Shown: positions 2,627-48,406 of the stretch, one piece after another
Layout: each line of letters opens with the position of its first letter
Numbering within the stretch: position 1 is the first letter of the stretch
Origin: Candidatus Eiseniibacteriota bacterium
Lineage (GTDB): Bacteria; Joyebacterota; Joyebacteria; Joyebacterales; Joyebacteraceae
DNA: 55,634 nt
Reading direction: 5' to 3'
Assembly (NCBI GenBank): GCA_030613615.1
Contig: JAUWLR010000002.1
Location: 1-55,634, forward strand
Program-made: the position numbers and the translations under genes
Notes under the pieces: model-generated
Told to the model about the DNA's origin: nothing
The model's database searches: none
Seen by the model: only the letters and a program-made list of their open reading frames with translations

Positions 2627-3904
2627 CTACGTCTTCCGCTCCTTCTTCTTCGCAGCGGGGAAGAGGACGTTGTTGAGTATCAGGCGATAGCCAGGGGAGT
2701 TCTTGTGCATGGAGAGAATCGTCGGCGGGTCGCCCACCAGGTGGCGGTAGTCCTCGGGGTCATGCCCGCCCATGAAGGTGAAGGTGCCGCGCCCCAAGTT
2801 GCCGTGGACGTACTTGACCTCGTTCTGGCCCGGGTAGTCACCCAGCACGGTAACGTGCTTCTTGACCAGACTGCGCCTGTAGCTCGTGGTCTGGCCCATG
2901 AACCCCTTGACCACATTGACGTGGCACTGCGTCAGCATGGTGGGCACGGGGTCGTGCTTGGCCGCGAACTCGAACAGCGTGAAGTAGTCGATCTCCTCGG
3001 GACGAAGGGCCGCGACCTCGGTCATGTCGATGTCCGAGAACTCGTAGACGTTGGGACTTGGTATCAGCCTGAAGTCCGTGAACGCGAGCGACTTCGAGTA
3101 ATCCAGCTTGCCCTGGTAGCCGGGCTCCGGAGGAGTCCAGTCAAACGGGGTGTCGACGATGTCCACCCCGGCCGCAGACAGTGCGATGTCGAAGCTGTCC
3201 GTGGCGGAGCACATCGCGAAGAGGAACCCGCCGCGCCGCACGTACTCCCTGATCTCGCGCGCGCTGGCCTTCTTGTGCTCGGTGACCGACGGGAATCCCT
3301 GCTCGCGGGCGAGGCGTTCGTAGTAGGTCTTCTGCTCCTTGTACCAGTCGGCGTTCCGGAACGACGCGTGGAACTTCCCGTACTGGCCCGTGAAATCCTC
3401 ATGGTGCAGATGGAGCCAATCGTACGTCTCGAGTTCCCCGGATTGAACTTCCTCGTCCCAGATTATCGTGTAGGGGATCTCGGCGTACTCCAGAGCGAGC
3501 ATCACCGCATCGTCCCATGGCTGAATGTTGTCGGGAGCGTAGAGCGCTACAGCCGGGGCCTTCTCGAGAAGGACAACCTCCATGTTCTCCTCCTCGATCT
3601 GCCGGTAGATCTGAGCGAGAGTGGCCCCATCAGGTTCTTCCCACGCGACGCCGCGGTACCGACACTCCGACCGCACGTCATCGAGCCCGTCCAGGATCAG
3701 GAAGGACCCGCTCCGGTAGTTCAGGAGCCACTCGACGCGATATCCCTTCTCGAGAGCCCAGTACGCGACTCCGTACGACTTGAGATGGTCCGTCTGGGTC
3801 AGGTCCATCGGGATCAGAGCCACTGCGTGCGCGGTCGCGCACGAGAGCAGCAGCGTCGCGGCGCAGAGTGCCAGAACAGCCGGGGCAACACGGGCTCGTC
3901 TCAC
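2627..3904 (-). CDS. Secreted protein of unknown function, last large gene of the DUF4159/DUF4175/TPR operon
   Basis: GTG start overlaps the TPR gene stop (GTGA). Signal peptide MRRARVAPAVLALCAATLLLSCATAHA. 425 aa with good coding composition. I cannot name a catalytic motif. From memory, it may belong to a family often auto-annotated as GATase1-like or asparagine-synthetase-B-like (unverified). Confidence 0.5.
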   Translation of the reverse strand: MRRARVAPAVLALCAATLLLSCATAHAVALIPMDLTQTDHLKSYGVAYWALEKGYRVEWLLNYRSGSFLILDGLDDVRSECRYRGVAWEEPDGATLAQIYRQIEEENMEVVLLEKAPAVALYAPDNIQPWDDAVMLALEYAEIPYTIIWDEEVQSGELETYDWLHLHHEDFTGQYGKFHASFRNADWYKEQKTYYERLAREQGFPSVTEHKKASAREIREYVRRGGFLFAMCSATDSFDIALSAAGVDIVDTPFDWTPPEPGYQGKLDYSKSLAFTDFRLIPSPNVYEFSDIDMTEVAALRPEEIDYFTLFEFAAKHDPVPTMLTQCHVNVVKGFMGQTTSYRRSLVKKHVTVLGDYPGQNEVKYVHGNLGRGTFTFMGGHDPEDYRHLVGDPPTILSMHKNSPGYRLILNNVLFPAAKKKERKT

Positions 3905-5748
3905 TCCTCGATTCCCTCCCCTCGTCTCAGCCGGTCCAGCTTCCGCCTGGCCTCGCCCGAGAGGACATTGGGCGGAAGGTCCTCAAGGATGGCCAGATAC
4001 TGGTCCATGGCTTCGCGTATCCGTCCCATTTTCACGGAGAGAATGTCGCCCTTCCTCATCATGGCCTCCGCACGGGCGGTGATTCCCTCGGACCCCTCGA
4101 TGATGCGGTCGTAGTAAGCGATGGCCTTCCTGGGCTCGTCGGCCACCGTCGCCGCCGCGCCAAGCAGAAGGAGCGCCTCCGTCTCGACAGCGGCGCCGGT
4201 GCCTTTGTTGGAGAGCGTCTCAAGCAACTCGCGCGACGACTTCTCGTCGCCCCTGATCCTGGTGGCGTGGGCGTCCGCGAGGAGGTTGACCGGCTCAACG
4301 TCGCCTGCCTCCTGTGCGTTTGCGATCACCAGCATGAGGCGCAGCGCGTCGTTGACGAGAGTTCCGGCCGCGTCCGCCTCGACCATCACCCTGAACTTCT
4401 CGACGGCCTTCGTGTGGTCGTGCTTCAGGAAAGAGATGAAGCCCAGCGCGAACATCGCGCTCTCGCGGATGTTGTCGGGTACGTCATCGCGAGTCAGCCC
4501 TGCCGACCGCTCGTACGCCTCGTCAAGCCGCCCCTGCTTCATGTAGGCGTCCACTTCTATGAGAGTCGCCTCCTCGTTCAGCCTGCGTGCCCGCTCGCCG
4601 AACCGCTCGCGCAGTTCCGCGACCGTTGTGAGCGCTGCGTCCGGGTCCTTGAGTACATCCAGCTCGATCTTGGCCGCCTCGAAGAGCGCGTAAGCTCCTC
4701 TGGACGAACCATCGAACGCGTGAGCTACAGACCGAAGTTCGAGGACCGCTCCAACGGGGTCGCCCTCCTCCGCAAGGATGCGCGCGGCGGCGGTGCCCGC
4801 CTGGGCGGCGCTCGACGTGCCGGGGTGGCGCTCGACGACCATCAGATAGGCCCCGCGCGCCTGCCCCCTGAGTCCTTCGTCCCTGAGTATCGTGGCGTAT
4901 TCCAGAAGCTCCGATCCCTGCCCTCCGGCGACCTCGTCGGCTCGGAGGAATGACTCGAGCGCCCTCTCGGGCAGGCTCAGCACCAGGTAGACGCTGCCGG
5001 CGAGGCCGAGCTCACTCACTGTTGCTCCCTCTGCGTCCGCTATCGTCGCCATCTTCGCGCGGACGTCGCCGCGTTTGGCTCCTTCCTCCAACATGAGCTC
5101 GATGCGATTGGTCGCCCATGACACGGCGCCGCTGTGGTTGTTGACGGTAACAAAGCACTCGTCGATCGCGGCGTCGAAATCACCGAGAGCGGTGTGGGCG
5201 GAGGTAAGCTCCTGGCTGAAAAGCGATTCGCTACGAAACGCGTCCCGGCCGGTCATGAATGTCTCGAGGGCCTGCTCGTACATCCTGTGCCTGATCTCGA
5301 GCATTCCGATCTCGGAGTAGCTGCCCGCGTCGGGCGGACCGTCCGCGAGCACCTCCAACCAGAGCTCGTGCGCCCGCTCGTGGTTCCCCACCTTCGCGTG
5401 AGCCCGGCCCAACTCCATCTTCAACTGGGTCTCCCGGGGCCGCTCCTCGAGCCTGCGCTCGAGCATCGGTATCAGGGCTTCCTCCTCCATACCGCCGGAC
5501 GAGTAGAGCCGCACCAGTCCCCAGAACGCGCGATCGTTGCCCGGGTCCTCCTGGAGGACCTCCGTGAATATCCGTATCGCCTCGTCGACCGCTCCAACCG
5601 CGGCCGCCTGCCGCGCGCGCTGGACCTTTCTCTCGGCGGGGCCCTCGTCTTCGGCGGGCACAGCGAGGGCACCCGCCGGCGCCCCCAGTGCCACCGTCAG
5701 TGCAAGAACGAGCGCCACAGTACGGGAGAACCCAGACACTCGCATCAT
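3901..5748 (-). CDS. TPR-repeat protein with signal peptide
   Basis: ATGA overlap with the upstream gene stop. Signal MMRVSGFSRTVALVLALTVALGAPAGALA. Repeated helical A/L/Y/G patterns typical of TPR run throughout (e.g. AIRIFTEVLQEDPGNDRAFWGLVRLY, ELGRAHAKVGNHERAHELWLEVL). Confidence 0.7.
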   Translation of the reverse strand: MMRVSGFSRTVALVLALTVALGAPAGALAVPAEDEGPAERKVQRARQAAAVGAVDEAIRIFTEVLQEDPGNDRAFWGLVRLYSSGGMEEEALIPMLERRLEERPRETQLKMELGRAHAKVGNHERAHELWLEVLADGPPDAGSYSEIGMLEIRHRMYEQALETFMTGRDAFRSESLFSQELTSAHTALGDFDAAIDECFVTVNNHSGAVSWATNRIELMLEEGAKRGDVRAKMATIADAEGATVSELGLAGSVYLVLSLPERALESFLRADEVAGGQGSELLEYATILRDEGLRGQARGAYLMVVERHPGTSSAAQAGTAAARILAEEGDPVGAVLELRSVAHAFDGSSRGAYALFEAAKIELDVLKDPDAALTTVAELRERFGERARRLNEEATLIEVDAYMKQGRLDEAYERSAGLTRDDVPDNIRESAMFALGFISFLKHDHTKAVEKFRVMVEADAAGTLVNDALRLMLVIANAQEAGDVEPVNLLADAHATRIRGDEKSSRELLETLSNKGTGAAVETEALLLLGAAATVADEPRKAIAYYDRIIEGSEGITARAEAMMRKGDILSVKMGRIREAMDQYLAILEDLPPNVLSGEARRKLDRLRRGEGIEE

Positions 5749-8700
5749 GGCGTCTCCTCCCCGTCGCGCGCGACGTCGGTCGTGAGCGCATGGAAGTACG
5801 CACGTATCAGCTCGCGGTACTCCGACGGGTACCCACGCTGCATCGCCCTCAAGAGGTCCTCCCGAAGCTCCTGCCTGACGCGCTCGATATCTTCAGGCAG
5901 ATCGCCCGGCCCGGACCGCGCGTAGCGGTCCGCCGTCTCGGAGGTCCGCTCGCGCGTGTAGTCGCGCCGCCTGAGCGACCTCTGGGCGTCGAGCAGGCGC
6001 GAGAGGATGCGCTTCTGCCTGTCGACCGTCTCCTGTGATGCCCCGCTCCTCTCCATCTCCTGCAGGGTTTGCGCCATCTCCTCGACGGTGTCATCCAGCC
6101 TGCCCAGGATCTCCCGGCGGTTCCCGAACTCCTCGGCGAGCCTCCTCGCCTCCTCCAGGATGCGTTCCTGCCGTCCCTTCATCTCGGCGAGCTGCCGCTC
6201 GAGTCCCGCGCTCATCCCGAGCTGCTCCATCTGCTGGCGAAGCCCCTCCGTCATGTCGTTGAGCTGAGACTGCTGCTCGCCCATTCGTTGGAGCTGCTGC
6301 ATCAGCTGGCTCATCGCACTTCCGGCGGAACCGGACGAGCTCTGGTTCGAGGTCAGAAGGCTCACGATGAGGGCGTTCACGCTGCCGAGCGCCGAGCGTG
6401 CCTCCTTGTGGCCGGCCGCGGAGCCTCCGTCGGCAATGTGCGAGGCGGCCCGGGTCATGGTCATCTGGACGGCACCGAAGGAGCGGTAGATACCGGGGTC
6501 GATGACGAAGGAGTCCTTGGACACCTGGAACATGCGATTCGCGATCGCGGACATGGCCTCGACGAGGTCGGCCTGCTTCGCAACGAGCTGCACCAGTTCA
6601 GCACGCGGGATCCTGCGGCGGCCGGCGACGGCCTTCACCACCCCTTCCTGCTCCGTCGATACACCCAGGAGCTCATCGATAGCCCGGAGCGTCGCGGCGC
6701 GGTCACGGTTCTGCAGGTTGCAGGACATGCCACCCTGGCACGACGACAGCCGCGTGAAGAGAGTCAGAAGATCGCTGGACGCCGACTGGCACATCTGCGA
6801 GGCCTCCGTGGGTTTGCTCTCGGAGAGCTTCGATCGCGCCTGCTCCATCTTCTCCGAGATCTGACAGGCTTCCATTTCAGCCGCGGCCTGGGCCATCTCG
6901 CGCGCAGCCGACGGGTCGACCTTGCTCATCTCCTCGATCGCGCGCTCGAGGTCGGCCTTGAGCTTCTCGACCTCCGCCTGCAGACTCTCCTGCTCCTTCG
7001 CCAGCGCCTGGCACTCCGAATCACTCGGGGACTGCTCTGCCTCGCGCGCCAGCTGTTCCTCCCGCGCCGCGAGGTCCTCCGCGCGGTCAGCAATGTCCGC
7101 GAGCGACTGTTCCGCCTTGGCGCGCCTCAGAAGGTTCAGCGTCTGCTCAAGACGCTTGAGGTAGTCGTCCTGGGTGATCGAGAGATTCTCCATCGCCTCA
7201 CTGACGTCCTCGGGCCTCACCCGCTCCATGGCCTCGCGAATCGCCTCGAGTAGTTCCCTCATCTCGTCGGTCGCCACCTCTTCAAGGAGCCGCTGTATCT
7301 CATCGATCTTCTCGAGCGTCTCGATCGTGATGCGGTCGGTCTCGCTCATGGAATCGGAGAGGTCGCTCAGGCGGTCCGCCATCCTGACGACATCGTCCGC
7401 GAGCTCCTCCTGCCGCTCCAGCGCACCTTCGACCCGCTCTTCGTCCTGCCAGTCGATCTCGGGCTCGCTTCTGATATCTTCCTGCATGTCCTCGAACTGT
7501 TCCCTGAGCATCTGCTGTTCCTCGAGCAGCTCACCCAGCTCGTAGGCGATGTCGTCGTGCTCACCTTGGACGTCGCTGTAGAGCTCCGACATCGACGGGA
7601 AACGCACGACGTAGCTCTCACTTCGGGACGACTTCGGGCCGGTCACCTGGTCGTTGTCCGTAACCTCCGCGTAGTAGATGAGCGAGCGCCCCGGAAGGAG
7701 CCCGGTCCCGGAGAGGTCCCACGCGGTCTCGCGCGACAGCTCACGAGGACCGCCCACGCCAAGATCCTCCAGCCTGACGATCCCCTCCTCGGACGAACCC
7801 TCGAGCGAGTACCGGAGCGACAGTGCGGAGATGCCGTAGTCGTCGACGGCCGACATGACAACAGGGAGCATCATGCCGCGCGGGGCCTCTCTGTCCTCGC
7901 CCGGCTCGACGATCCTCACCAGTGGACGTTCGTCACGGATGGCCACGATAGAGTAGGTCGGCGGGGCCGGGTTCGTGAGACCGTCCGTGTCCGCAAGCTC
8001 AATCGAGTATCCGCCGTCAGCGCGTACGGCGATCGTCGCTTCGAACGAGCGGGGCTCAAGCTGCGACATCGGGACTCGCTCACCTCCCTCGAGCACGAGC
8101 GCGGCCCGCGTGAGAGGCTTGCTCGCCGTGATTGTGACGGCGACGTTCGTGCCCCGGAGGGCCGTGATGTCGCCGTTGTTCTCGTCTACTGTTCGAGGAA
8201 GAAGTCCGCTGTACCGAGGGAAGTGGTAGTCCAGACGGATGTTCGTCACGAAGGGGCGCTCCACGACGGTGACTTCGTAGGTCGGCGACGACGCGTCTCC
8301 GACCTCCACGGAATACGAGAGGTCGCTCCTGACGTCCCTCAGGGTGGCGCGGAACTCAGCGCCAACGTGTCCGGCAGCCGTGACCTCCTGCGGCGTCATC
8401 GCCTTCAGGGAAGGCCGCTCGCCGTCGAACTCGAACACGAGAGACGGGAGGCCGCGATAGGACCCTCCCAGCGCAGCGACGACCTCGAGATCGTCGCCCG
8501 CGACGAGCGTAGCGTCGCCCGGCTTCACATCTATGCGGACGGCCGGCGCCTCGACCACGTCGAGCGGACGGGTCAGGCGTGCGAGCGCGGGTGCGAGGCG
8601 CGCGCCGAGCGCCATCATCCCCGCGGCGGCGATCAGGAGTACGGCTACCATGACACTGACGGTGCGCCGCGTGCTCCCGGGCCGGGGCGCGATGCGGAAA

Positions 8701-9179
8701 TCTACCCCCGCCGCTTCCGCGACCGTTCGCAGTATCAGCGCATCGATGAGCTCGACCGAGTAACCGTGGCGCCCCCTGCCGCGCTTGTCCCAGAGTTCAG
8801 CTGACGACTCCAGCCGCTCGCCCAACTCCGGAAGCCGCTCCTCGATCTTCGCCGCGAGTTCCACCGCATCGACCGGGCGAGCCAGCACACGAACCACCCA
8901 CAGGAGCGCTCCGCCGATGAGCAGGACCAGCGCGACGGCGAGCCACGCGACCCGGACGACCGGCGACAGCACGACCAGCGCTTCCAGAGCAACCAACGCC
9001 GCCAGCACGCCGACGATGACGGCCGTGAGCCGCACCAGCCCTGCTGCAGCTGCCTGTCTCTTCCAGTGTTCGCCCGCCGCCTTGATGCGGCGAACCAGTT
9101 CCCTGTGGCCGTGTTCCGGGCTCCGCGTTGTCACCTTCACCTCTTCAGTTCCGTTCCTTAGCGTCCCGCCGGCCAGCAC
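5745..9179 (-). CDS. Large membrane protein, DUF4175-like (N-terminal TM helices, beta-rich periplasmic region, long acidic/Gln-rich coiled-coil tail)
   Basis: 1144-aa ORF. TM segments: LVRLTAVIVGVLAALVALEALVVL, VAWLAVALVLLIGGALLWVV and VSVMVAVLLIAAAGMMALG. The C-terminal low-complexity E/Q/R/M-rich region ends ...YPSEYRELIRAYFHAL. It sits next to a DUF4159 gene. The start is uncertain: GTG at 9179 or GTG at 9134. Confidence 0.55.
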   Translation of the reverse strand: MLAGGTLRNGTEEVKVTTRSPEHGHRELVRRIKAAGEHWKRQAAAAGLVRLTAVIVGVLAALVALEALVVLSPVVRVAWLAVALVLLIGGALLWVVRVLARPVDAVELAAKIEERLPELGERLESSAELWDKRGRGRHGYSVELIDALILRTVAEAAGVDFRIAPRPGSTRRTVSVMVAVLLIAAAGMMALGARLAPALARLTRPLDVVEAPAVRIDVKPGDATLVAGDDLEVVAALGGSYRGLPSLVFEFDGERPSLKAMTPQEVTAAGHVGAEFRATLRDVRSDLSYSVEVGDASSPTYEVTVVERPFVTNIRLDYHFPRYSGLLPRTVDENNGDITALRGTNVAVTITASKPLTRAALVLEGGERVPMSQLEPRSFEATIAVRADGGYSIELADTDGLTNPAPPTYSIVAIRDERPLVRIVEPGEDREAPRGMMLPVVMSAVDDYGISALSLRYSLEGSSEEGIVRLEDLGVGGPRELSRETAWDLSGTGLLPGRSLIYYAEVTDNDQVTGPKSSRSESYVVRFPSMSELYSDVQGEHDDIAYELGELLEEQQMLREQFEDMQEDIRSEPEIDWQDEERVEGALERQEELADDVVRMADRLSDLSDSMSETDRITIETLEKIDEIQRLLEEVATDEMRELLEAIREAMERVRPEDVSEAMENLSITQDDYLKRLEQTLNLLRRAKAEQSLADIADRAEDLAAREEQLAREAEQSPSDSECQALAKEQESLQAEVEKLKADLERAIEEMSKVDPSAAREMAQAAAEMEACQISEKMEQARSKLSESKPTEASQMCQSASSDLLTLFTRLSSCQGGMSCNLQNRDRAATLRAIDELLGVSTEQEGVVKAVAGRRRIPRAELVQLVAKQADLVEAMSAIANRMFQVSKDSFVIDPGIYRSFGAVQMTMTRAASHIADGGSAAGHKEARSALGSVNALIVSLLTSNQSSSGSAGSAMSQLMQQLQRMGEQQSQLNDMTEGLRQQMEQLGMSAGLERQLAEMKGRQERILEEARRLAEEFGNRREILGRLDDTVEEMAQTLQEMERSGASQETVDRQKRILSRLLDAQRSLRRRDYTRERTSETADRYARSGPGDLPEDIERVRQELREDLLRAMQRGYPSEYRELIRAYFHALTTDVARDGEETP

Positions 9180-9228
9180 CGTCCACCCGATGCGCTCCGC
9201 GCGACGTATCCCGCCAGCGGCGCTACCG

Positions 9229-9924
9229 TCAGTGCGAGAGCGCGTAGACCACGATATTGATGCCCATCCTGAGCGCCGCCTCGTGCTTCTCCGGCGGGTC
9301 GTTATGGACCTCGGCGTCCTCGAGGCCGTCGCCTACGTCCGTGTTGAAGCTGTAGAACAGCACGAGGCGGCCGTCCAGGAACGCACCGTATCCGTGCGGC
9401 GGACCCCCGTCGTGCTCGTGGATCTTCGGGAGTCCCTCGGGAAACTCGTAGAACGAGTGGTAGATCTCGTGATCGAACGGAAGCTCGACGAGCGGAGACC
9501 CCGGCAACACTCGGTCCATCTGCGTGCGGAAGTGCCGGTCCATCCCGTAATTGTCGTCCGCCCACAAGAACCCGCCGCGCTCGAAGTACTTGCGCAGAGC
9601 AGCGACTTCATCGCCCGTGAAGACGATCCTGCCGTGTCCCGTCATGTGGATCATCGGATAGATGAAGAGCTCGTCGTCGTCGGCCGCCACGGTGGCCGGT
9701 CTCTCCGCCACGTCCAGATCGCTGCGGCTCGAGACCGCCGCGAGTAGATTGGGTAGCGCTGTGGGATTGGCGTACCAGTCGCCTCCCCCGCGATACTTGA
9801 GCTGGGCGATAGTGAAACCGGCCGACGAGTCCGCGCCGGGACAGCTCTCCGTCAGTAGGGCTCCTGTCAGAAGGACACAGAGGAGAACCACGAGCGAGCC
9901 GGTGAGTGGGTTGCGGTGCGTCAT
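9229..9924 (-). CDS. DUF4159 domain-containing secreted protein
   Basis: ATG at 9924 is preceded by GGAGGTAGGAGG. Signal peptide present. The motif FTIAQLKYRGGGDWYANPTALPNLL and the rest of the sequence match my memory of DUF4159. Confidence 0.7.
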   Translation of the reverse strand: MTHRNPLTGSLVVLLCVLLTGALLTESCPGADSSAGFTIAQLKYRGGGDWYANPTALPNLLAAVSSRSDLDVAERPATVAADDDELFIYPMIHMTGHGRIVFTGDEVAALRKYFERGGFLWADDNYGMDRHFRTQMDRVLPGSPLVELPFDHEIYHSFYEFPEGLPKIHEHDGGPPHGYGAFLDGRLVLFYSFNTDVGDGLEDAEVHNDPPEKHEAALRMGINIVVYALSH

Positions 9925-13056: not shown

Positions 13057-14310
13057 CTACCTGTACATCGCCTTGATGGTCGCCCACGACGTGGACTCGA
13101 CCGCCACGGCGCCGCTGCATCCCTCGCCGAACGCCCCGATCTGCTCGCCCCATGGGTTGTTCGGCGGCAGACAGACCGATATCTCGTCGAGCGTCAGATC
13201 CCCGAGCAACATATCGCAGAAGTAGGGGTTCTCGTAGAGGATGTCGCTGTAGGTCCCGCAGGGGTCGTTCCCGACCACGTTTCCGTAGAAACAGCACCTG
13301 GTCACAGTGGGGGCGCCACCCGCGTCGCACGTCATCGCAGGTCCGCTGCCGAAGGCGACTATGCAGTAGGTCATGATCATGTCGCCCTGCGGCGGTCCGC
13401 AGAAAATGCCACTGCCTGTTGGTGACCACCCGCCGACGAACGTGCAGTACTGGACGTCGGCCCGCGTTCCGCACGCGTAGCCGGCCCCCCGGAAGCTCGC
13501 GGTGTTGTCGTAGAACAGGCAGTATCTGAGCGTGACCAAGCCAGAAACCCCACTCCCCAGGCCCCCACCACTGTACGCGGTGTTCCGGGAGAAGACCGAG
13601 CTTGTGATGGTCACCGCCGAGTTCTCACACCTCAACCCGGCGCTGTACTCTGCGGCGTTGTCCTCGAAGACCGTCCCGTCGACCGCGGCCGTGCTGCCGG
13701 CCCGAAGCATGACGCCGCCACCAAGGTGCCCCTGGTTGCCCTCAAAGAGGCAGGCCTTGAGGTCTACTGAAGAGTAGTCGGAGCACCGGATCCCACCGCC
13801 TGCGGCGCTCGCGAAGTTCTCCCTGAACGCACAGCCGATGAGCGTCGGCGCCGCGCTAAGGACGCAGTCCATACCCGCGCCGCGCGATGCCGAGCACTCC
13901 ATGATCTCACAATTCACGATCGTCGGGGACGCGCCACTACAGTAGATGCCGCCGCCGTCGCTGGCCGCGCCGCGGCGCATGACAAGTCCCTCAATCCGTG
14001 CAGCTGGTCCCTCTCCGTTCTCGAAGATGAAGCAGCGCCCCTGCATTTCCGCGTCGACAACCACCGGGTCGGCGGCGACCATCGCCACGACAACGATGTC
14101 CTTGCCCAAGAAACTGAGGTCCCGGTTGAGCCCGCCGGTGTAGACCCCAGGGGCCACGAGAACAGTCTCCCCGGGGGCCGCGGCGTAAATCCCCTGTGCC
14201 AGCGTCAGGTAGTCTCCGCCACCGTTCAGGTCCACCACAATGGTCGTCGCTGTCGCCGGAAGCGCAGCAAGGAGGAGAAGAGCCACACCTATAAGAACTG
14301 CCCGTGCCAT
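13057..14310 (-). CDS. Secreted right-handed parallel beta-helix repeat protein with a Cys-rich C-terminus and a ...SWATIKAMYR tail
   Basis: Signal MARAVLIGVALLLLAALPATA. Repeated ~22-aa units (GGGIYCSGASPTIVNCEI, GAGMDCVLSAAPTLIGCAF, GGGIRCSDYSSVDLKACLF, GGGVMLRAGSTAAVDGTVF and so on) are typical of pectate-lyase-fold repeats. Confidence 0.7.
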   Translation of the reverse strand: MARAVLIGVALLLLAALPATATTIVVDLNGGGDYLTLAQGIYAAAPGETVLVAPGVYTGGLNRDLSFLGKDIVVVAMVAADPVVVDAEMQGRCFIFENGEGPAARIEGLVMRRGAASDGGGIYCSGASPTIVNCEIMECSASRGAGMDCVLSAAPTLIGCAFRENFASAAGGGIRCSDYSSVDLKACLFEGNQGHLGGGVMLRAGSTAAVDGTVFEDNAAEYSAGLRCENSAVTITSSVFSRNTAYSGGGLGSGVSGLVTLRYCLFYDNTASFRGAGYACGTRADVQYCTFVGGWSPTGSGIFCGPPQGDMIMTYCIVAFGSGPAMTCDAGGAPTVTRCCFYGNVVGNDPCGTYSDILYENPYFCDMLLGDLTLDEISVCLPPNNPWGEQIGAFGEGCSGAVAVESTSWATIKAMYR

Positions 14311-20566: not shown

Positions 20567-21241
20567 CTACTGCATGAAGAGGCTCTTGAGCTCACTGAGC
20601 GAGACGCGCTCGACGTTCGGATCCTCACGGCTTCCACCCCGCTCCACGAGGTCGAACCAGTAGTAGATCTCCCACCATAGCACGTCGTCGGGATCGGGAA
20701 TCGGATTCGGCTGGTCTATGTCGATGCGCATGCGGAACTCAGATGGCGCCGTCGCCAGGAAGGTGGTGTCTCCGAAGAGATTCACCCGAAGGTCCACTTC
20801 CACTATGCAGATACAGGTGTCGTCCCGGGGGTCCTCCGGAAGACCATAGTCGTACACAATGCTGGCGATAGTGAGGGTGAGCGTGATGCTCTCGACGTCC
20901 GAGCCGTGCGCGAACATGCTCTCGTGTATGAACTCCTCGTCGATCTTCCACCACACGGGGGGGATGTCGAGCTCGGGGTTGTTCACGTCGTCCTCGTTCG
21001 GGAAGAACTCGAAATCCTCGGACAGGCAGTCGAGGTACTCGCCGGAGTCCATCCAGATGTATGCCGTCCTGAGATTGTGGAGGACATCCTCCGGCGTGAG
21101 CCGGTCGTGGTAGTCTGGAGGATCGATCTCCACCGGATCCCCTTCCTCCGGAGCGAAGGGGTTCCAGCAGCCACCCAAGGTCAAAACAAACACGGCCAGC
21201 AGCGCGGAAACCGCCAGCCTCCTGATGGGAAACCTCACCAT
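20567..21241 (-). CDS. Lipoprotein, paralog of 21449-22150 (unknown family)
   Basis: ATG at 21241 with GGGAGGAG upstream. Lipobox AVFVLTLGGC. Shares with its neighbour the blocks P-x-D-VL-x-NL-x-A, Y(L/M)DC, DF-x-F, W-x-x-D-E and LW-x-I-x-x-W-x-D, plus a related C-terminal tail. Confidence 0.65.
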   Translation of the reverse strand: MVRFPIRRLAVSALLAVFVLTLGGCWNPFAPEEGDPVEIDPPDYHDRLTPEDVLHNLRTAYIWMDSGEYLDCLSEDFEFFPNEDDVNNPELDIPPVWWKIDEEFIHESMFAHGSDVESITLTLTIASIVYDYGLPEDPRDDTCICIVEVDLRVNLFGDTTFLATAPSEFRMRIDIDQPNPIPDPDDVLWWEIYYWFDLVERGGSREDPNVERVSLSELKSLFMQ

Positions 21242-21283
21242 GTGATAACTCCTCCCGTTGTTTCCCCACTCACACAACTAGTG

Positions 21284-21448: not shown

Positions 21449-22150
21449 CTAGCGGTAGTCTCCCCTCAGAACTCCCCAGGTTGCGCTTCCACCGGGATCG
21501 GCCGCCCTGCGGTCGACCCACTCGAAGATGGACCAGAGCTGGGTCTCATCACGCCTCATCCAGAATGTCGCCTGGCCGCGATAGGTCACGGACTCACCGG
21601 GCTGGTGGTCGCCGTACTGCCAGACGATGGTCAGTTCGTAGTCCTCGCGGCGGTAGGTCTCGTCCTCGCTCTCGTCCGGCTCCTCCACCGTGGTGAACAC
21701 CACGTCGATGCCCATGGTCGAATCCAGAAACACCCCGTCGACGTACGTGGCCTCGTCATCTCTCCTCCAGTGGGCGTAGCGGTCCTCCCCCTCCTGCCCG
21801 GCGTCCAGGGAGTCCTGGGGGTCGACGTGGAATCTGAAGCTATCAGTGGGGCTGTCCATAATGAAGCAGTCCATGTAGTTCGAGATGCCCTCACCGGCCA
21901 GGGCCGCCGCGAGGTTCTCGAGCACCTTGTCCGTGTCCGTCGGGGTGACCCACGGGATATCGGGCCCCTCGTCCGGCGGCCCGTCCGCGTCGCGCGGGCC
22001 GAAAAGGCAGCCGGGCACGGCAACGAGAAGCACGCCGGCGGCGAGCCAGGCAAGCGCCACTCGCGCCCACGCCGCTACTCGCGCCCGCGTCCATGATGCG
22101 CCGGACGTCTCTCTTAGAAGGTCCGGTTGAGATTGGCCGCAATGTTCCAT
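21449..22150 (-). CDS. Lipoprotein, paralog of 20567-21241
   Basis: Lipobox LLVAVPGC. Ends ...SATWGVLRGDYR. The start is uncertain: ATG 22150 overlaps the last 12 codons of the barrel gene, and a GTG about 80 nt downstream is also possible. Confidence 0.6.
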   Translation of the reverse strand: MEHCGQSQPDLLRETSGASWTRARVAAWARVALAWLAAGVLLVAVPGCLFGPRDADGPPDEGPDIPWVTPTDTDKVLENLAAALAGEGISNYMDCFIMDSPTDSFRFHVDPQDSLDAGQEGEDRYAHWRRDDEATYVDGVFLDSTMGIDVVFTTVEEPDESEDETYRREDYELTIVWQYGDHQPGESVTYRGQATFWMRRDETQLWSIFEWVDRRAADPGGSATWGVLRGDYR

Positions 22151-24177
22151 ACTTCGCGCTGCCTTTCACTGATGTTCGTGGCGTTACGATGAGTCCTGGC
22201 GACGCTGATCTTCAGGGCCGTGCCGTCAGGTAACGAGTACTCCGTGCTCGCCTTGCCGACGATGCTCGTGTCGAACTTGTCCCAGACCGGTGTCCTGTCG
22301 CCGTCCTCATCGATCTTCCATTTGTCTTGGACGCCCAGATTCTGCCTTACTTCAATCGTTATCAGGTCGGCTATCTTGTAGCCGAGAGTGATGCCGAGCT
22401 TCTGGTCTATGCGTTCGCTGTTCCTCCCGTAGCCCTCGACGCCTTGCTCATTCTCGGCGTAGGAGCCCTCGTCCTGCGCGCGCCAGGTGTGCTCCAGCCC
22501 CAGCTCGAGCGGGTCGAAGGGCCTCCAATTGAGACCGGTTGTGATGGACATGTTGCGGATGAGAAAATTCGCGTTGGTATCGTAGTGATAGAACGTGTAG
22601 TCCGCCGAGAGCTGATACCTCTGGCTGGCTCCGAAGCGGGGAGTGAACGATTTGCGGATGAACGGCTCGATCGCGAACTTCTGTGTCGTCTTGTTGTCCC
22701 CGGTTCGTGAGCGCCTGATGTAGATGAGCTGGTCGTCTCTGATTTTGATCACGAGCCCGGTCGTGATGTCCTTCCTCATCTTGTAGTTCACAGTGAGCGT
22801 TGCCTCTCTGTCGAAGAGGTCTCGGTCCTTGTCGTTGGCCTCTATGTCGTCGTAGTGGACCGACAGGAGACTCATTCTCCCGCGGAGTGAGGCGTCGAGC
22901 CCCTCCTTGAATGTGTGCGCCACGCTCGCCGACAGAGTGTTGGTGTAGTTGTCGCCCGTCCGCACGTCGAAGTAGTCGTTCCTCTTCCGGTCGGAGGCCA
23001 GATTTGCTCTGAACATCGTCTCGCCAAGATCGTAGGTCATGCGCGCCTCGACGCCGCGCGCTGCGATATCGTTGTTCCTCGAAGGCTCGATTCTGTAGTA
23101 CTGCTGTTTGCGCGAGTATTTGAAGGAGAACTCCGCACCAAGACCCTCGAGCAGACGGAGATCCGCCGTCACGCTCGTGGATTCATTCTCCCGCTCTTTG
23201 TGCTCGGTCTGTTCCTCTTTCGGGTACTGCTGTGTTCCTGTGGACCTCCGCAGGTCCACGGTGAAGCGGTGCATCTGCCAGTCGTAGTCGATGTGGCCGG
23301 ACAGGTCGTGGTTTACCGACTCGTCTTTACTTCGCAGACTGCCCTGCTCCGAGTCGAGCAGCGAGTGATTCCCCGTGTACGAGAACGACGTGCTCAGATC
23401 CTCGATCGGCGAGTAGCCCAGCTTGCCGGTAATGCCCTGTGTCCCGCCCCTGCTCCTGACATTCGTGTACCTGTTCTTCTCGATTCCCGCAGTCGCTCCC
23501 AGCGACACGTCGAGGCCCTGCATGTAGACCTTGTGATACGACGTGGAGAGCTTGACCGACTCTTTCTCTCGCGCACTTCTGGTCTCGTTTGCCTTACCCT
23601 CGTTCTGCACGTCGACGTGCTTGTTCCTGCGGAACTTCAGGCCGGTGGTGATCGCGCCGCTCACACGCGCGTCGAGCCCGGCGGTCCAGGTTTCCTGCCG
23701 GTTGAGACGGTTGGACGCATCGTTTGTGCGCGTGCTGATGTTCGCGGTGGAGCCGAAGGATATCCTCTCGCTGATGGGGTAGTTCATTGTGAAGCCGTGG
23801 GTCCACGAGGCAACGTCCTGGTCGCGCCTCTGCTCGAGACGGTAGCTGGGGTGGAACTCCCGGTGCCACACGTATCCTTCGGGCAGTTCCCCATCCCCTC
23901 CCTGTTGGCCGGGGGGCTCGTTCTGGAAGTCCGGACGGTCGGTGCTGCCCTCGTCGCCCTCGCCCTCTTCACCGTCGGGCCCCTGCTCCTCGCCCTCTTC
24001 GCCCTCGCCAGCCTGCTCCTCGCCCTCTTCACCGTCGGGCCCCTGCTCCTCCCCGTCGACCTGCCCCTGCTCCTCCCCATCGTCCTCCTCGTCGTCCGCC
24101 ACGGCGGGCGCGACGGCGAGAAGCACGGCCAGGAGAACCATGAGCGGCAGGAGGTATCGTAGGAGCGTGCGCGACAC
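22114..24177 (-). CDS. Outer-membrane beta-barrel protein, uncharacterised, with an acidic low-complexity N-terminal region
   Basis: GTG at 24177 follows GGAGGAAG. Signal VSRTLLRYLLPLMVLLAVLLAVAPAVA. Next comes an ~55-aa D/E/G/Q tract, then ~600 aa of alternating amphipathic strands rich in Y/T/S/N/R. The protein ends in the OMP-like terminus ...NLNRTF. Confidence 0.65.
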   Translation of the reverse strand: MSRTLLRYLLPLMVLLAVLLAVAPAVADDEEDDGEEQGQVDGEEQGPDGEEGEEQAGEGEEGEEQGPDGEEGEGDEGSTDRPDFQNEPPGQQGGDGELPEGYVWHREFHPSYRLEQRRDQDVASWTHGFTMNYPISERISFGSTANISTRTNDASNRLNRQETWTAGLDARVSGAITTGLKFRRNKHVDVQNEGKANETRSAREKESVKLSTSYHKVYMQGLDVSLGATAGIEKNRYTNVRSRGGTQGITGKLGYSPIEDLSTSFSYTGNHSLLDSEQGSLRSKDESVNHDLSGHIDYDWQMHRFTVDLRRSTGTQQYPKEEQTEHKERENESTSVTADLRLLEGLGAEFSFKYSRKQQYYRIEPSRNNDIAARGVEARMTYDLGETMFRANLASDRKRNDYFDVRTGDNYTNTLSASVAHTFKEGLDASLRGRMSLLSVHYDDIEANDKDRDLFDREATLTVNYKMRKDITTGLVIKIRDDQLIYIRRSRTGDNKTTQKFAIEPFIRKSFTPRFGASQRYQLSADYTFYHYDTNANFLIRNMSITTGLNWRPFDPLELGLEHTWRAQDEGSYAENEQGVEGYGRNSERIDQKLGITLGYKIADLITIEVRQNLGVQDKWKIDEDGDRTPVWDKFDTSIVGKASTEYSLPDGTALKISVARTHRNATNISERQREVWNIAANLNRTF
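23961..24050. repeat. Three tandem 30-nt in-frame repeats inside the barrel gene (units 1 and 3 identical)
   Basis: cgccctcttcaccgtcgggcccctgctcct (23961-23990 and 24021-24050) flank cgccctcttcgccctcgccagcctgctcct (23991-24020). The units encode EEQGPDGEEG / EEQAGEGEEG / EEQGPDGEEG. Confidence 0.8.
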
Positions 24178-24250
24178 GATTCGGTCTTCCTCCGCTGAGC
24201 GTGGGCGCCATGATGTGTCGGCGCCGGCGATGTGCGTTCGGACACGCGAC

Positions 24251-25171
24251 CTACACGCGCGCCCCACCTTGACCGTCGCCGACGAGCGCGCAGGCCAGAT
24301 CATCGAACTCCTCCACCGACAGCGTCTCTCCTCGACGGGACAGGGCAATGCCCGTCACCTCCTCGAGTTCAGACGCGGTCCTCCCCCGTTCACTCATCAT
24401 CGCCTGCAGCGACTGACGGAGCATCTTCCGTCGCTTGCCGAACGCTGCGTGAACGACGGCCTCGAAGTCGTCCGGGTCGCTCCGGCGCCCAAGGTTACGC
24501 TCGAACACGATCTCGATGACACCCGAGTCCACCTTCGGCCGAGGATAGAAGCAGGTTCGCTTCACCGTGAAGAGCCGTCGGACACGGGCGTGGTATCGCA
24601 TAACGACCGACAGACCCGAGTAGTCACTCTCGCCGGGCTCGGATGCGATTCGCGCGCCCACCTCCGACTGGATCATCAAGAGGCACCGGGCGACGTGGTT
24701 TCGCTCGTCCGTGAGCCGGCGGACGAGTGGGCTCGTGATACTGTACGGAATGTTGCCCACGACCACGAGCTTGTCAACGCCATGATGCTCTGCTGCCTCC
24801 GCGAAATCCAGATCCAGAATGTCGCCGACGACGAGCGTTATGTCCTCGCGTTCGCCGTACTCGGCCCTGAAAGCACCGGCTATACCTGCGTCAATCTCCA
24901 CTGCAATCACATGACGGGCCGCCTGCGCAAGCCCAAATGTCAGGGCGCCGAACCCGGGACCGATTTCCACGACCACGTCGTCGGGTGAAAGCCCCACCGC
25001 GGACACGACCTTCCTTATCACGTTCCCGTCGGAAAGGAAGTTCTGACCCCTCTGCTTGGACGGCGCCAGCCCATACTTCCCCAGCATCGCCGCCGGCGGT
25101 GTGGGGCTCATCGCGGCCGCTTCACTCGCCCGATTGCCCGGTCCTCTGCCGTGGTTGCCGTCTTCGCCCAT
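24251..25171 (-). CDS. rsmA: 16S rRNA (adenine1518/1519-N6)-dimethyltransferase
   Basis: KQRGQNFLSDGNVIRKVV, VVEIGPGFGALT, and the rest of the sequence is KsgA-like. ATG at 25171 overlaps the upstream TGA by 1 nt (TGATG). The N-terminal ~29 aa may be an extension; alternative ATGs are at 25111 and 25087. Confidence 0.85.
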   Translation of the reverse strand: MGEDGNHGRGPGNRASEAAAMSPTPPAAMLGKYGLAPSKQRGQNFLSDGNVIRKVVSAVGLSPDDVVVEIGPGFGALTFGLAQAARHVIAVEIDAGIAGAFRAEYGEREDITLVVGDILDLDFAEAAEHHGVDKLVVVGNIPYSITSPLVRRLTDERNHVARCLLMIQSEVGARIASEPGESDYSGLSVVMRYHARVRRLFTVKRTCFYPRPKVDSGVIEIVFERNLGRRSDPDDFEAVVHAAFGKRRKMLRQSLQAMMSERGRTASELEEVTGIALSRRGETLSVEEFDDLACALVGDGQGGARV

Positions 25172-44520: not shown

Positions 44521-45102
44521 CTATCGATAGAGCGCCTTGATTGAGCCCCAGGTCGCTGCCTCTACCGGCACGACGGGGAAGCACTCCTCGTCACCCTCGA
44601 GCGCGTCCTTGCCCACTCCTCCGTGCATCCAGACGCAGTAGAAGTCGAGCTCCGGATATGGTTCGTGACAATCCACGACCCAGCGCGGGTAGTCGGGGTG
44701 GTCGAGGATCATGATATCGCCCGGGGTACCCGTGTAGATGAGATCGAGCCTGGCCACATAGAGGAACCGCTCCGTGTGGCACTCGGCCGACGCCATGGAG
44801 ATGCCCACGTCCCACGAGCCGATGCTGATACTCCCGGGGAGCAGATTCGTGAACCAGGTGTTGCTTGACATTTCTGGCGTGACGTAACCCGTGAAGGAGA
44901 TGCCCGAAAAGGCGTTGATGCCGTAGATGCAGATGTACGCGTCGAACAGTTCGTAGGGCTCGGGGTCGATGCGGCTCTGCACATTCGACCACGACGTCGC
45001 GGTACCGGAGAAGTCGATGCACACTTGACAGTCCGGGTTGTCACCGGCGAACGCTGAAATGGAGCAGGCCACCACGACGACAATCACTAGTGTTATCCTC
45101 AT
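44521..45102 (-). CDS. Small Cys-rich secreted protein ending in ...TWGSIKALYR
   Basis: ATG at 45102 with GGGAGGA 7 nt upstream. Signal MRITLVIVVVVACSISAFA. 193 aa. The 165-codon upstream extension of the tracked ORF was rejected. Confidence 0.6.
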   Translation of the reverse strand: MRITLVIVVVVACSISAFAGDNPDCQVCIDFSGTATSWSNVQSRIDPEPYELFDAYICIYGINAFSGISFTGYVTPEMSSNTWFTNLLPGSISIGSWDVGISMASAECHTERFLYVARLDLIYTGTPGDIMILDHPDYPRWVVDCHEPYPELDFYCVWMHGGVGKDALEGDEECFPVVPVEAATWGSIKALYR

Positions 45103-45286: not shown

Positions 45287-48200
45287 ATGACACCGCTCCC
45301 TGCCCGCCGCACAAGAGCAGTCGCGTGCGCCTGTCTCGCGACCGCAATCCTCTGTGGAAGCATCGGAACCCAAGAGCCGGCGCACGCTGCCGCTGCCGGC
45401 GCGCCGGCAGCGGCATTGCCCCAACGCGCCCCCCTGGCGGTGACGCTCGGGGCAGTCGAGGCGCCCGCTTGGGAGCGCCCCAAGGGCGCGGCGCTGCTCG
45501 GCCGCGATCCGGACGAGCTCATCCTTCGCGCTCCGCCCGACTCGCTCATCGCCGCATTGATGGACTCCACGAGTCTGACGAGGATTGTGGGTACCATCCA
45601 GCGGCTTCAGGACTTCGACAGCCGTTACGTGGTCGTCGACTCCTGCTGGGCGGCCGGCTACTGGATCCGGGACAAGTTCCAGGAATACGGCTACTCCGAT
45701 GTTCGCCTTGACACCTTCCGGACGATGTCCTTTCAGGACAGCGTCGACGCCATGAATGTCATCGCCGTCAAGGAGGGGACGACGCGACCGTCTGAGTACG
45801 TTGTACTTGGAGGGCACTACGATTCCGTCAACGCGGAGAACTTCCACGACCCGTTCGCCCTTGCGCCCGGCGCCGAGGACAACGCCACCGCGGTGGCCGC
45901 GGTGCTCGAAGCAGCTCGCCTGCTTGAGGGTGTTCCCACAGACCGCAGCATCATCTTCGCCTGCTGGTCCGCAGAGGAGATGGGGCTGTGGGGCAGCCGG
46001 CACTTCGTCGCCGAGGCTGTCGAGGAGTCGCTCGACATCGTCGTCTATCTCAATATGGACTGCATCGGGTACCTCGAGCCATCCCCCGATGAGGCCCCGG
46101 TGATTGTCTTCACCGACTCCCTGTCGCTCGCCATAGCCGGATACATGCAAACGCTAGCGCACACCCACACGCCGTATGAGTTTCAGACCTGCATCCGCCC
46201 CATTGGCGCGAGCGACCACACGAGCTTCTGGGAGGCCGGGTACAACGTCGTCGACATGGGCACAACCATCGCCTCGCCCTACCGTCACACGACCGACGAC
46301 ATCATCGACAACATAGACACCGACTTCGCCCGGGCGCTCGCCGCCGTGAACGTCGCTGCGACGGCCGCCGTCGCCGGTGTGACCGGAGAAGACGCCAACC
46401 TGCCACCAGAGACCATGCGCATCGCCAACTGCGCCGCTTCCGTGTCACCCCTCACCATGCGCCCGACGTTCGAGTGGAACGGAATGGACTTCGACGGGAG
46501 CATCGCGCGCTTCGACTACGCGGTCGAGTCGGACACCGGGGACGGCGCACGCCGGGACCGACCGCCCGACTGGAAGCCGCTGCCCCCACACCAGACATCG
46601 CTGACGCTCGATGACCTGGGTGAGGGCTCGCACATCCTGTACCTCCGGGCGATCGACGACAGGGACGTCGCGGACCCATCACCCGTGGTTTATGAGTTCG
46701 TGACGGACGCGGCGCTCCGCCCGACGCTCACGGTGGACCTCAACTTCCACCCCGGCACGCGGACGTTTCATGGGGGGCGGGCGAGAGACCGCACACCGCC
46801 GGTCGTCGTTTACGAGGACGAGCGCCTGGTCTTCACGGTCACCTCCGACGCGTCCTCATACTGTGGCTCGGCCGACTCGGTCGCGGTAGCGCTCGCCGAC
46901 TCGACGGCGTGGTCGGACTGGCACCGGTCGCCGTACGAGTTCGTGCTGCGCCCGGGACCCGCGGACACGGTCGTGTTCATGAAGACCCGGGATGAGAACG
47001 GCGCGGTGACCACCGGCAGCGTTTCCTTGCGCACCGTTCCCGCACCGATGGACCGGCCCCTCCTGCGCGTGGACGACTGGTTCTTCGGTGACGTTCCGGA
47101 AACCACACACGATGCGTTCTACAGCGATGTCCTCGCGGGTGAGAGCTGCGACGTCTGGGACCCGTTCGAGCACTCCGAGAACTACGTGCCTACGCTGCCC
47201 CCCATGGAGGAACTGGGCCGCTACCGAACCGTGCTCTGGACACTCGACTGGCGGGGCGGATTCCTCCGCCCCGTGCAGGCAGAGAGCGCATACCACTTTC
47301 TTGAGGGATTCGTCCGAGCCGGCGGGAACGTCATTCTGGAGGGGCAGGCCTCGCTGTGGACGATGTGTGGCGCGGATCAGTACCTGTGGGACGTCACCTA
47401 CGAGCCCGGCGGCTTCATCTTCGACCACGTCGGGGTCGACAGCCTGAGAAACGCCAGAGCAGGCACGAACGCGTCGTACCCCAGTGGGTACGGCTACGCG
47501 TTCCTGGGCGGAATCGCCACGGGGACTGTGGGCCTTCCCGACGTTCCGGTCGACACGCTGGGAAAGTGGGCTGATGGCTACCAGGCGTACGGCGGCCTCC
47601 CGTACTGCGAGATCGTACGGCCGCTGGAGCAGACACGAAGGCTCTACCTCTTCGACTCGCACATCAACCCGGACCTGAGCGAGCGCCCCTGCGCCACGGT
47701 GCGGTACCCCGATGACGGGACCGGCACTTTTGCCTACTTCGGGTTCCCCCTCTACTATCTGCAAACCGACCCGGCCGCTGAGATGCTGGGGCTGCTTCTC
47801 GACTCAATGGAAAGTTGGCAGCAGCCGGCCGCGCTCTCCTACTTCATCTGGGAAGCGCAGCCGGATTCCGTCACGTTGTCCTGGTACCTGACTCCGGCCG
47901 GCGGTCCCCTCGGCTGCGGTCTCGAGCGCGCGGCTGGCAGCGGATCCGGCGCATACCACGCGCTGAGCGACAGCCTTGTGCGACCATGTGACAACGGACG
48001 ATACCGGTTCGTGGACGATTCGGTTGAACAGTCAACGGCGTACTCGTACCGCCTCACCGTCACGGAGCAGTGGGGCGTGACCACGACCCATGGTCCGTGG
48101 GAGATCCCGACACCCAGCTCGCGGATATCCCCGTGGCTGGAAAGTCCAAGGCCGAATCCCTTCTCGGAGACACTCAATCTCCACTACGGCGTCGCGGCGG

Positions 48201-48406
48201 ACCATCGGTGGGTGTCAGTCGGCGTGTTCGATATCTCCGGCAGACTGGTCAGAGCGCTGCGCGAGGGGGCGGCGCAGACGGGCGAGTACGACGTGACCTG
48301 GGACGGGACCAACGAACACGGCGACACCGTCGCCAGTGGTGTCTACTTCGTTCGCGTGCGCGTGGGACAGGAGACGCTCGAGCGCAAGGTCGTGCTCCTG
48401 AGGTGA
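45287..48406 (+). CDS. Secreted M28-family metallopeptidase with a large uncharacterised middle region and a FlgD-Ig/T9SS-type C-terminal domain
   Basis: Signal peptide present. M28 blocks: NVIAVKEG, VVLGGHYDS, APGAEDNATAVAAVLE, FACWSAEEMGLWGS and GASDHTSFWEAGY. The C-terminus PNPFSETLNLHY...VGVFDISGRLVRAL...YDVTWDG...GVYFVRVRVGQETLERKVVLLR is typical of FlgD-Ig-like/T9SS sorting domains. Confidence 0.75.
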   Translation: MTPLPARRTRAVACACLATAILCGSIGTQEPAHAAAAGAPAAALPQRAPLAVTLGAVEAPAWERPKGAALLGRDPDELILRAPPDSLIAALMDSTSLTRIVGTIQRLQDFDSRYVVVDSCWAAGYWIRDKFQEYGYSDVRLDTFRTMSFQDSVDAMNVIAVKEGTTRPSEYVVLGGHYDSVNAENFHDPFALAPGAEDNATAVAAVLEAARLLEGVPTDRSIIFACWSAEEMGLWGSRHFVAEAVEESLDIVVYLNMDCIGYLEPSPDEAPVIVFTDSLSLAIAGYMQTLAHTHTPYEFQTCIRPIGASDHTSFWEAGYNVVDMGTTIASPYRHTTDDIIDNIDTDFARALAAVNVAATAAVAGVTGEDANLPPETMRIANCAASVSPLTMRPTFEWNGMDFDGSIARFDYAVESDTGDGARRDRPPDWKPLPPHQTSLTLDDLGEGSHILYLRAIDDRDVADPSPVVYEFVTDAALRPTLTVDLNFHPGTRTFHGGRARDRTPPVVVYEDERLVFTVTSDASSYCGSADSVAVALADSTAWSDWHRSPYEFVLRPGPADTVVFMKTRDENGAVTTGSVSLRTVPAPMDRPLLRVDDWFFGDVPETTHDAFYSDVLAGESCDVWDPFEHSENYVPTLPPMEELGRYRTVLWTLDWRGGFLRPVQAESAYHFLEGFVRAGGNVILEGQASLWTMCGADQYLWDVTYEPGGFIFDHVGVDSLRNARAGTNASYPSGYGYAFLGGIATGTVGLPDVPVDTLGKWADGYQAYGGLPYCEIVRPLEQTRRLYLFDSHINPDLSERPCATVRYPDDGTGTFAYFGFPLYYLQTDPAAEMLGLLLDSMESWQQPAALSYFIWEAQPDSVTLSWYLTPAGGPLGCGLERAAGSGSGAYHALSDSLVRPCDNGRYRFVDDSVEQSTAYSYRLTVTEQWGVTTTHGPWEIPTPSSRISPWLESPRPNPFSETLNLHYGVAADHRWVSVGVFDISGRLVRALREGAAQTGEYDVTWDGTNEHGDTVASGVYFVRVRVGQETLERKVVLLR

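Follow-up and report, generated by a model that had tools for sequence, protein, structure and literature searches.

LPXTG, PEP-CTERM and the sorting domain of the type IX secretion system (T9SS) are C-terminal signals whose study led in each case to dedicated machinery, and surface proteomes are predicted with their help. The T9SS type A domains (TIGR04183, PF18962 and the FlgD-Ig-like PF13860) are 70-100 residues long, form an immunoglobulin (Ig)-like beta-sandwich and are located at the C-terminus of diverse Sec-exported proteins. The tripartite CTERM signals (PEP-CTERM, IPTL-CTERM (TIGR04174), GlyGly-CTERM, MYXO-CTERM and LPXTG) are short, lineage-specific C-terminal motifs on many unrelated exported proteins. 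Here we looked at a peptide of about 16 residues, referred to as the tag, which resembles both groups in its position and in its hosts. It is found in 55,634 nucleotides of DNA from Candidatus Eiseniibacteriota bacterium (contig JAUWLR010000002.1, positions 1 to 55,634; this whole stretch is called the window), where it ends a beta-helix protein and a cohesin-like protein, and it is almost certainly a genuine modular tag.

A conserved peptide at the end of unrelated proteins

On the minus strand of the window, positions 13057-13119 encode CSGAVAVESTSWATIKAMYR and a stop codon, which is the end of a 417-amino acid (aa) open reading frame (ORF) at 13057-14310, and positions 44521-44583 encode CFPVVPVEAATWGSIKALYR and a stop codon, the end of a 193-aa protein. 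The start of the 193-aa protein (MRITLV...) is upheld by its homologues, which also have 193 aa (for example P0004 at 96% identity). An earlier note on this DNA had proposed that two unrelated exported proteins share a nearly identical end and that degenerate versions close two paralogous lipoproteins, and both statements hold. The first two hosts are a beta-helix and a cohesin-like protein, and in alignments the degenerate tails SATWGVLRGDYR and VSLSELKSLFMQ match the canonical tails of their lipoprotein family position by position. The second degenerate copy (20567-20605) has Leu in place of Trp and retains the K-S-L-F pattern. By BLAST clustering, the lipoprotein at 21449-22150 groups with canonical-tag proteins of loci L064 and L067, and its paralogue at 20567-21277 has 40% identity to the L067 protein. 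In a six-frame regex scan the full motif occurs three times in the window, always at an ORF end. A degenerate DNA pattern for V-E-x-x-[ST]-W-[GAS]-x-h-K-[AS]-h-[YF]-[RKQ], from which the stop codon was deliberately excluded, gave two window matches vs 0.00 expected (100 shuffles).

The tag consensus, enlarged by the positions that the DNA pattern left unconstrained, is [TVS][PAS]-V-E-x-x-[ST]-W-G-x-[IV]-K-[AS]-[LM]-[YF]-R, with SPVEDATWGSIKALYR as an example. Most tails (106 of 125) end in Arg. Within a host family whose overall identity is just 35-40%, the W and K are invariant and P-V-E is conserved in at least 90%; such strictness at the level of single residues is more readily explained by a specific protein partner than by generic binding to lipid. 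The codons vary freely at synonymous positions (all Val codons are used, and Arg is encoded by both CGN and AGR) and the DNA downstream of the two window copies is unrelated, therefore selection acts on the peptide and not on a DNA repeat. The same two observations rule out a DNA-level repeat or a mobile element that supplies gene ends. The upstream Cys, which had been taken as part of the motif, did not hold up: it is present in only about 10-20% of tails, 4-7 residues before V-E, and belongs to the ends of particular cargo domains.

Distribution, hosts and predicted structure

A scan of one genome per GTDB species with the stop-free DNA pattern found at least 118 stretches, with 127 matches listed, vs about 4 expected (our own calculation for a uniform base composition). 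A stop codon follows the motif immediately in 102 of the 127 listed matches (binomial p ~1e-110 against 3/64) and one residue later in 13; the motif lies within 9 residues of the ORF end in 125 and more than 10 residues from it in 2. A 17-position tail HMM (alignment A5) was also run against 1.84 billion representative proteins and gave 303 clusters at E<=1e-3, which is a lower bound for so short a model. Of the 150 matches listed, 146 were checked; 144 contain the motif by regex, 123 end exactly at ...[YF]R and 20 more end within 3 residues of it (143 in total). A search of a 5.8-billion-protein index with a two-sequence, 47-column tail alignment returned only 3 near-identical fragments, the word filter being too strict for short queries. 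The enrichment at C-termini that the earlier note had anticipated thus extends well beyond the window. Its description of the motif as strictly terminal stands in part: the motif is near-terminal, but up to 9 polar residues may trail it and there are rare tandem, internal and N-terminal copies. The tag is restricted in lineage. Labelled records come from Eisenbacteria (~25), Krumholzibacteria (~11), Gemmatimonadota (~8), Latescibacteria (3), Effluviviaceae (3) and Zixibacteria (1), together with a few probable mislabels; all are metagenome-assembled genomes (MAGs) and none is cultured.

The hosts are diverse. After the tails were stripped, 110 tagged proteins fell into 64 clusters that are unrelated by BLAST, and among the HMM library matches 90 proteins of at least 130 aa gave 39 clusters. 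As had been predicted for the tag, most hosts carry export signals: by a crude h-region rule, an N-terminus resembling a signal peptide is present in 98 of 107 complete hosts (~92%) vs 128 of 253 neighbouring coding ORFs (Fisher p = 5e-15). Host domains are those usual for surface or secreted proteins, namely beta-helix, pectate lyase, CHRD, lamin-tail domain (LTD), Kelch and PD40 propellers, P-domain (P_proprotein), Cleaved_Adhesin and DUF11. Several hosts have the NCBIfam choice-of-anchor domains J, W, P, V and X, and choice-of-anchor families are named for their co-occurrence with differing C-terminal anchors. In public sources the tagged proteins are nameless or called "hypothetical protein", and a few beta-helix homologues have JGI labels such as "predicted outer membrane repeat protein".

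The beta-helix family shows that the tag occupies a slot which is otherwise filled by known anchors. The 120 listed homologues of the window protein have a common C-terminal cap (DP-x-FC...SPC...G-x-G-x-GC, similar to choice-of-anchor Q), and their endings diverge beyond it. The cap is followed by the tag in at least 41 of these 120, and by a FlgD-like T9SS domain in 12 by regex and in several more by eye, with P0297 and P0328 above the TIGR04183 cutoff. Three homologues (P0316, P0339 and P0345) end in IPTL-CTERM above the TIGR04174 cutoff, and one (P0343) ends in a GC-type dockerin (NF041540). No protein was seen to carry both the tag and a T9SS sorting domain. The two do occur in the same genomes, both in the window and in 28 of the 118 loci, where a sorting domain like that of the window M28 peptidase was found. 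A second recurrent ending, ...P.QALVG....LTNL.VLEV[RKE] and stop, was observed on the beta-helix homologues P0317, P0326, P0337, P0338, P0347, P0350, P0368, P0378 and P0379. In the two that were tested (P0337 and P0350) it follows a choice-of-anchor Q domain and no NCBIfam model covers it, and it could represent a further C-terminal module that has not been described.

Among the host families, that of the 193-aa protein ranks second in frequency. Nearly all of its 114 homologues are tag-ended, even at 35-40% identity, and several MAGs have tandem arrays of 2-4 genes of the family (L011 with 4 copies, L042 with 3, L049 and L112). The 193-aa protein itself has no Pfam or NCBIfam match, and in a Foldseek search with its AlphaFold2 model the best PDB matches were all cohesins (E ~7e-5, TM 0.45-0.58).

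In the lipoprotein family the tag is not confined to a single terminal copy. C-terminal tandem tags are present in P0119 (4), P0128 (2) and P0130 (2), and tags lie between duplicated domains in P0122, P0133, P0121 and L064. P0118, which represents a cluster of six sequences, and P0253 have, besides their C-terminal copy, a tag directly after a signal peptide that is not of the lipoprotein type. This N-terminal tag sits in the region of the lipobox Cys of the paralogues, and it may substitute for lipid anchoring in these two proteins. Based on the trailing residues and on the tandem, internal and N-terminal copies, a free carboxylate at the C-terminus is not strictly required. Outside this family, the ORF L089:1658-2935 (+) has an internal tag (…SPVEDVSWGKLKAMFRPDSD…), after which come 291 residues that belong to a second copy of the ~408-aa 'GCGPGAAG..DDIW.E' host family. 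This suggests either that two tandem tagged genes fused or that a stop codon was lost.

Structures were predicted with AlphaFold2, using family alignments, for the two unrelated window hosts. The 193-aa model is a beta-sandwich (mean pLDDT 87) with a low-confidence linker at about residues 170-181 and a helix at 182-191, and the 417-aa model is a beta-helix (mean pLDDT 93.8) with a low-confidence linker at 399-408 and a helix at 409-416. Hence, in both models the end of the fold is succeeded by a linker of about 10 residues, and a short detached helix is predicted for the final 8-10 residues ([ST]WGxIKALYR). If the segment is helical, the sequence places W, I and L/Y on one face, K and R at its edges and polar residues at the variable positions.

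Relation to known systems and possible function

It was suggested earlier that the tail matches no named C-terminal sorting class and differs from the FlgD-Ig/T9SS-type domain in the same window. Our searches agree on both counts. No Pfam or NCBIfam model covers the tail in the window proteins, in 107 tagged proteins or in tail-only peptides at E<=10, and no family is common to the tagged set. The matches from a profile search of the PDB, to WGAIKADY at the C-terminus of RNase H and to a designed coiled coil, are all due to chance, and the literature that was searched (on the motif, choice-of-anchor, IPTL-CTERM and Eisenbacteria/Krumholzibacteriota secretion) contains nothing on this motif. 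The HMMs of T9SS type A/B sorting domains (TIGR04183 / PF18962 or TIGR04131) match neither the four window proteins nor the tail-only peptides, and do not appear as a shared family of the 107; the window M28 peptidase, which served as a positive control, is matched, and its C-terminal FlgD_ig / Por_Secre_tail domain has no similarity to the tag tail. The presence of this domain in the window indicates that the same organism also uses a classical long C-terminal sorting domain.

Similar results were obtained for the other classes. No NCBIfam CTERM model matches the tagged proteins, with P0316, P0339 and P0345 as positive controls for TIGR04174. On beta-helix homologues, IPTL-CTERM (IPTLSEWG...) is found in the slot of the tag, with which it has an S-x-W-G element in common. 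Nevertheless, the tag differs from the tripartite signals in having neither a transmembrane helix nor a basic cluster; the protein ends 7 residues past W-G, and since the stop comes directly after ...[YF]R in most of the listed matches there is no room for a transmembrane segment. Sortase, exosortase and rhombosortase genes were not seen in the window or among the neighbours at the 118 loci, which were the regions covered. The beta-signal of outer membrane proteins (OMPs), read by BAM, is also a conserved C-terminal peptide with an aromatic residue near its end, but the hosts of the tag are soluble folds (beta-helix and beta-sandwich), its terminal residue is Arg rather than Phe/Trp, and a helix is predicted rather than a barrel strand.

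The tag has what is generally seen in C-terminal sorting or anchoring tags: it is modular and near-terminal, it occurs on unrelated hosts with export signals, and it swaps with known anchors on homologous cargo. We therefore lean, with moderate confidence, to the interpretation that it is a sorting or tethering peptide which a receptor recognises and which places its host at the surface or outer membrane, a function read from its context. A signal of this type had been proposed before, and its terminal restriction, its unrelated exported hosts and the absence of a known domain support that proposal; to these can be added the strict conservation, the host types and the alternation in the anchor slot. 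In the mechanism that we suggest, many unrelated Sec-exported proteins of Eisenbacteria, Krumholzibacteria and nearby uncultured phyla would have the tag joined to their C-terminus through a short flexible linker. Once such a protein is exported, its final ~10 residues may fold, probably upon binding, into a short helix on which Trp, Ile and Leu/Tyr make up a hydrophobic stripe with Lys and Arg at its sides, and a dedicated envelope protein (a receptor, carrier or translocon) would read this helix by its sequence. The cargo would then be sorted to, or tethered at, the cell surface or outer membrane, a task that on homologous cargo falls to a T9SS sorting domain, IPTL-CTERM or a dockerin. Functionally the tag is closest to C-terminal anchors and mechanistically perhaps to the secretin S-domain and its pilotin (PulD-PulS, MxiD-MxiM), in which a short disordered C-terminal peptide becomes helical when bound by a specific lipoprotein carrier, and this carrier brings the protein to the outer membrane. 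This is a functional analogy only: the S-domain is secretin-specific and not modular on hundreds of cargo families, the sequences are not similar, and no pilotin-like partner of the tag was identified.

Several observations weigh against a receptor-read sorting or tethering peptide. All carriers are uncultured and the localisation of the tagged proteins is deduced from context. The signal-peptide rule is positive for 51% of the control set. The pLDDT of the tail helix is only 55-68, and its hydrophobic moment (0.45 at 100 degrees vs 0.35 +/- 0.17 shuffled) is not significant and does not separate helix from strand, so that the helix is taken from the AlphaFold2 models only. The window contains no sorting machinery, and an all-against-all BLAST of 835 ORFs from the 118 loci, made in search of a partner gene, gave only generic recurring families (T9SS-domain proteins, TPR proteins, a large (~800-1100 aa) protein family, radical-SAM-like proteins and GTPases). 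The expectation of a co-occurring partner gene has thus failed both in the window and among these neighbours. Finally, the tandem, internal (including L089) and N-terminal copies do not fit a classical cleaved C-terminal secretion signal, and this favours tethering over translocation.

The alternative that survives best, although it is unlikely, is a direct membrane anchor, in which the tag would be an interfacial amphipathic helix that enters the leaflet or lipopolysaccharide (LPS) without a receptor, as in E. coli PBP5/PBP6. These proteins (DacA/DacC) also have a C-terminal helix joined by a linker to a Sec-exported soluble domain. The short detached helix predicted by AlphaFold2 fits such an anchor, as do Trp/Tyr together with Lys/Arg, which are typical interfacial residues, the tandem copies (four in P0119), which suggest avidity, and the N-terminal copies of P0118 and P0253, placed as if replacing a lipid anchor at the position of the lipobox Cys. 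However, the PBP5/PBP6 anchors are longer, loosely conserved and lipid-binding, whereas the tag helix has only ~10 residues with a mean hydrophobicity of ~0 and a moment not above shuffles, and P-V-E, W, G and K are conserved across phyla far more strictly than lipid-binding helices need.

No more probable is a minimal alternative T9SS signal, that is, a peptide read by the type IX system or a derivative of it and removed after translocation. The phyla and genomes with the tag also use FlgD-like T9SS domains, and the two alternate on the same cargo family; both observations would agree with such a signal. Yet there is no similarity in sequence or fold: instead of an Ig-like beta-sandwich, the tag is a linker and an 8-10-residue helix in the models of the two hosts. 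It also tolerates trailing residues and can be tandem, internal or N-terminal, and such copies are not known for T9SS signals. The T9SS machinery genes SprA, PorV and PorU are absent from the window.

Another hypothesis, which we regard as rather improbable, is that the tag is a mini-dockerin whose helix docks non-covalently on the tag-bearing cohesin-like 193-aa proteins, building chains or a display scaffold for tagged enzymes. Dockerin-cohesin, SLH and LysM modules are, like the tag, modular, repeatable and found at either end, and the cohesin-like fold of a frequent host with tandem gene arrays, as well as the GC-type dockerin in the same slot on a beta-helix homologue, would agree with docking. 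On the other hand, AlphaFold2 leaves the tail undocked on its own domain in cis (tail pLDDT ~55), and the cohesin-like jelly roll is a common fold for which the TM scores are modest. Dockerins have ~60-70 residues with two calcium-binding loops, while the tag is a single 16-residue peptide with no calcium-binding dockerin signature, and dockerin HMMs do not match the tagged proteins (P0343, the positive control, matches NF041540).

It is very improbable that the tag is a processing or degradation signal, a site for a periplasmic PDZ-type or tail-specific protease in turnover or maturation. A near-terminal motif on a flexible linker would suit such a protease, but Tsp/Prc prefer non-polar C-termini and the tag ends in a charged Arg, its trailing residues and internal copies speak against recognition of a free carboxylate, and the fact that anchoring domains take its place on the same cargo suggests a role in localisation. 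The last option, that the tail is no tag and represents a structural strand or helix of each host fold, a chance match or a DNA-repeat artefact, draws on the short length of the motif only and can be dismissed, as it is refuted by the 64 unrelated host clusters, the detachment of the tail from both predicted folds, the excess of window matches over the shuffles, the free synonymous codons and the unrelated downstream DNA.

If the sorting or tethering interpretation is taken further, we can tentatively suggest that Eisenbacteria, Krumholzibacteria and allied phyla without cultured members have a previously unrecognised system for sorting or surface display, to which the tag belongs. This system might have a dedicated receptor or translocon, possibly the cohesin-like 193-aa protein as scaffold, and serve hundreds of cargo families in parallel to T9SS. 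In phyla for which metagenomes are the sole source, the tag marks a large number of diverse exported proteins, among them beta-helix and pectate-lyase-like enzymes and adhesin-like and choice-of-anchor proteins, which are now annotated as hypothetical. An HMM of the tag would improve their annotation at once and delimit the proteins of these lineages that are likely to be secreted or at the surface, and the tag is also a handle for finding the partner machinery. If this partner is new, so would be the envelope sorting or tethering pathway, and the tag could prove to be categorically new. A portable tag of 16 residues could also serve in surface display.

Features of the window and gene neighbourhoods

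Table 1. Tag copies, their cargo genes and a contrasting sorting domain in the window.
Feature	Position	Strand	Remarks
Tag core, canonical copy VAVESTSWATIKAMYR	13060..13107	-	Ala instead of Gly after Trp; stop codon 13057-13059
Cargo gene 1, 417-aa, signal peptide and right-handed beta-helix	13057..14310	-	PF13229 E=1.6e-20
Tag core, canonical copy, VVPVEAATWGSIKALYR-type	44524..44571	-	Stop codon 44521-44523
Cargo gene 2, 193-aa, signal peptide and cohesin-like beta-sandwich	44521..45102	-	
Degenerate tag copy SATWGVLRGDYR, then stop	21449..21487	-	On lipoprotein gene 21449-22150
Strongly degenerate tag copy VSLSELKSLFMQ, then stop	20567..20605	-	On paralogous lipoprotein gene 20567-21277
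FlgD-Ig / T9SS type A sorting domain ending the M28 peptidase (45245-48406); contrast feature, not a tag	48140..48406	+	PF13860 E=4.3e-10, PF18962 E=4.4e-5

The features are collected in Table 1. The tag genes do not form an island and are scattered among housekeeping genes, such as mfd and holB, which were recognised by family matches, and genes that resemble secD/secF in sequence. The region 39976-44239 (-) adjoins the cohesin-like tagged gene and comprises a gene for a MoxR-like AAA ATPase (43229-44239, assigned by sequence only), an ORF at 42212-43222 and a BatA/VWA gene (39976-42273, by Pfam); this looks like an ordinary housekeeping context.

The two lipoprotein genes with tags are immediately preceded, in an operon-like layout, by a gene for a protein of ~690-746 aa (22114-24354, -) that has a signal peptide, a long acidic low-complexity stretch (EEDDGEEQG...), an alternating sequence resembling a beta-barrel and ...NLNRTF at its end. 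This protein is possibly a partner of the two lipoproteins in the outer membrane. As a candidate for a dedicated translocon this 746-aa OMP-like protein was rejected: it has no Pfam or NCBIfam family, no homologue beside the L064 and L067 lipoproteins and no relatives in the metagenome scan. Elsewhere in the window, a 1195-aa ORF (5745-9332, -) has no Pfam family and only weak NCBIfam matches of coiled-coil type (SMC-like), and is followed by a TPR protein (3901-5892).

The window segment 45245-53369 is syntenic with L070 (CAZQSB010000002.1), the nearest genome relative of the window that was seen. The M28 peptidases have 47% identity and the products of the next genes 72%, 65%, 40% and 38%, and in L070 a different tagged protein precedes the M28 gene.

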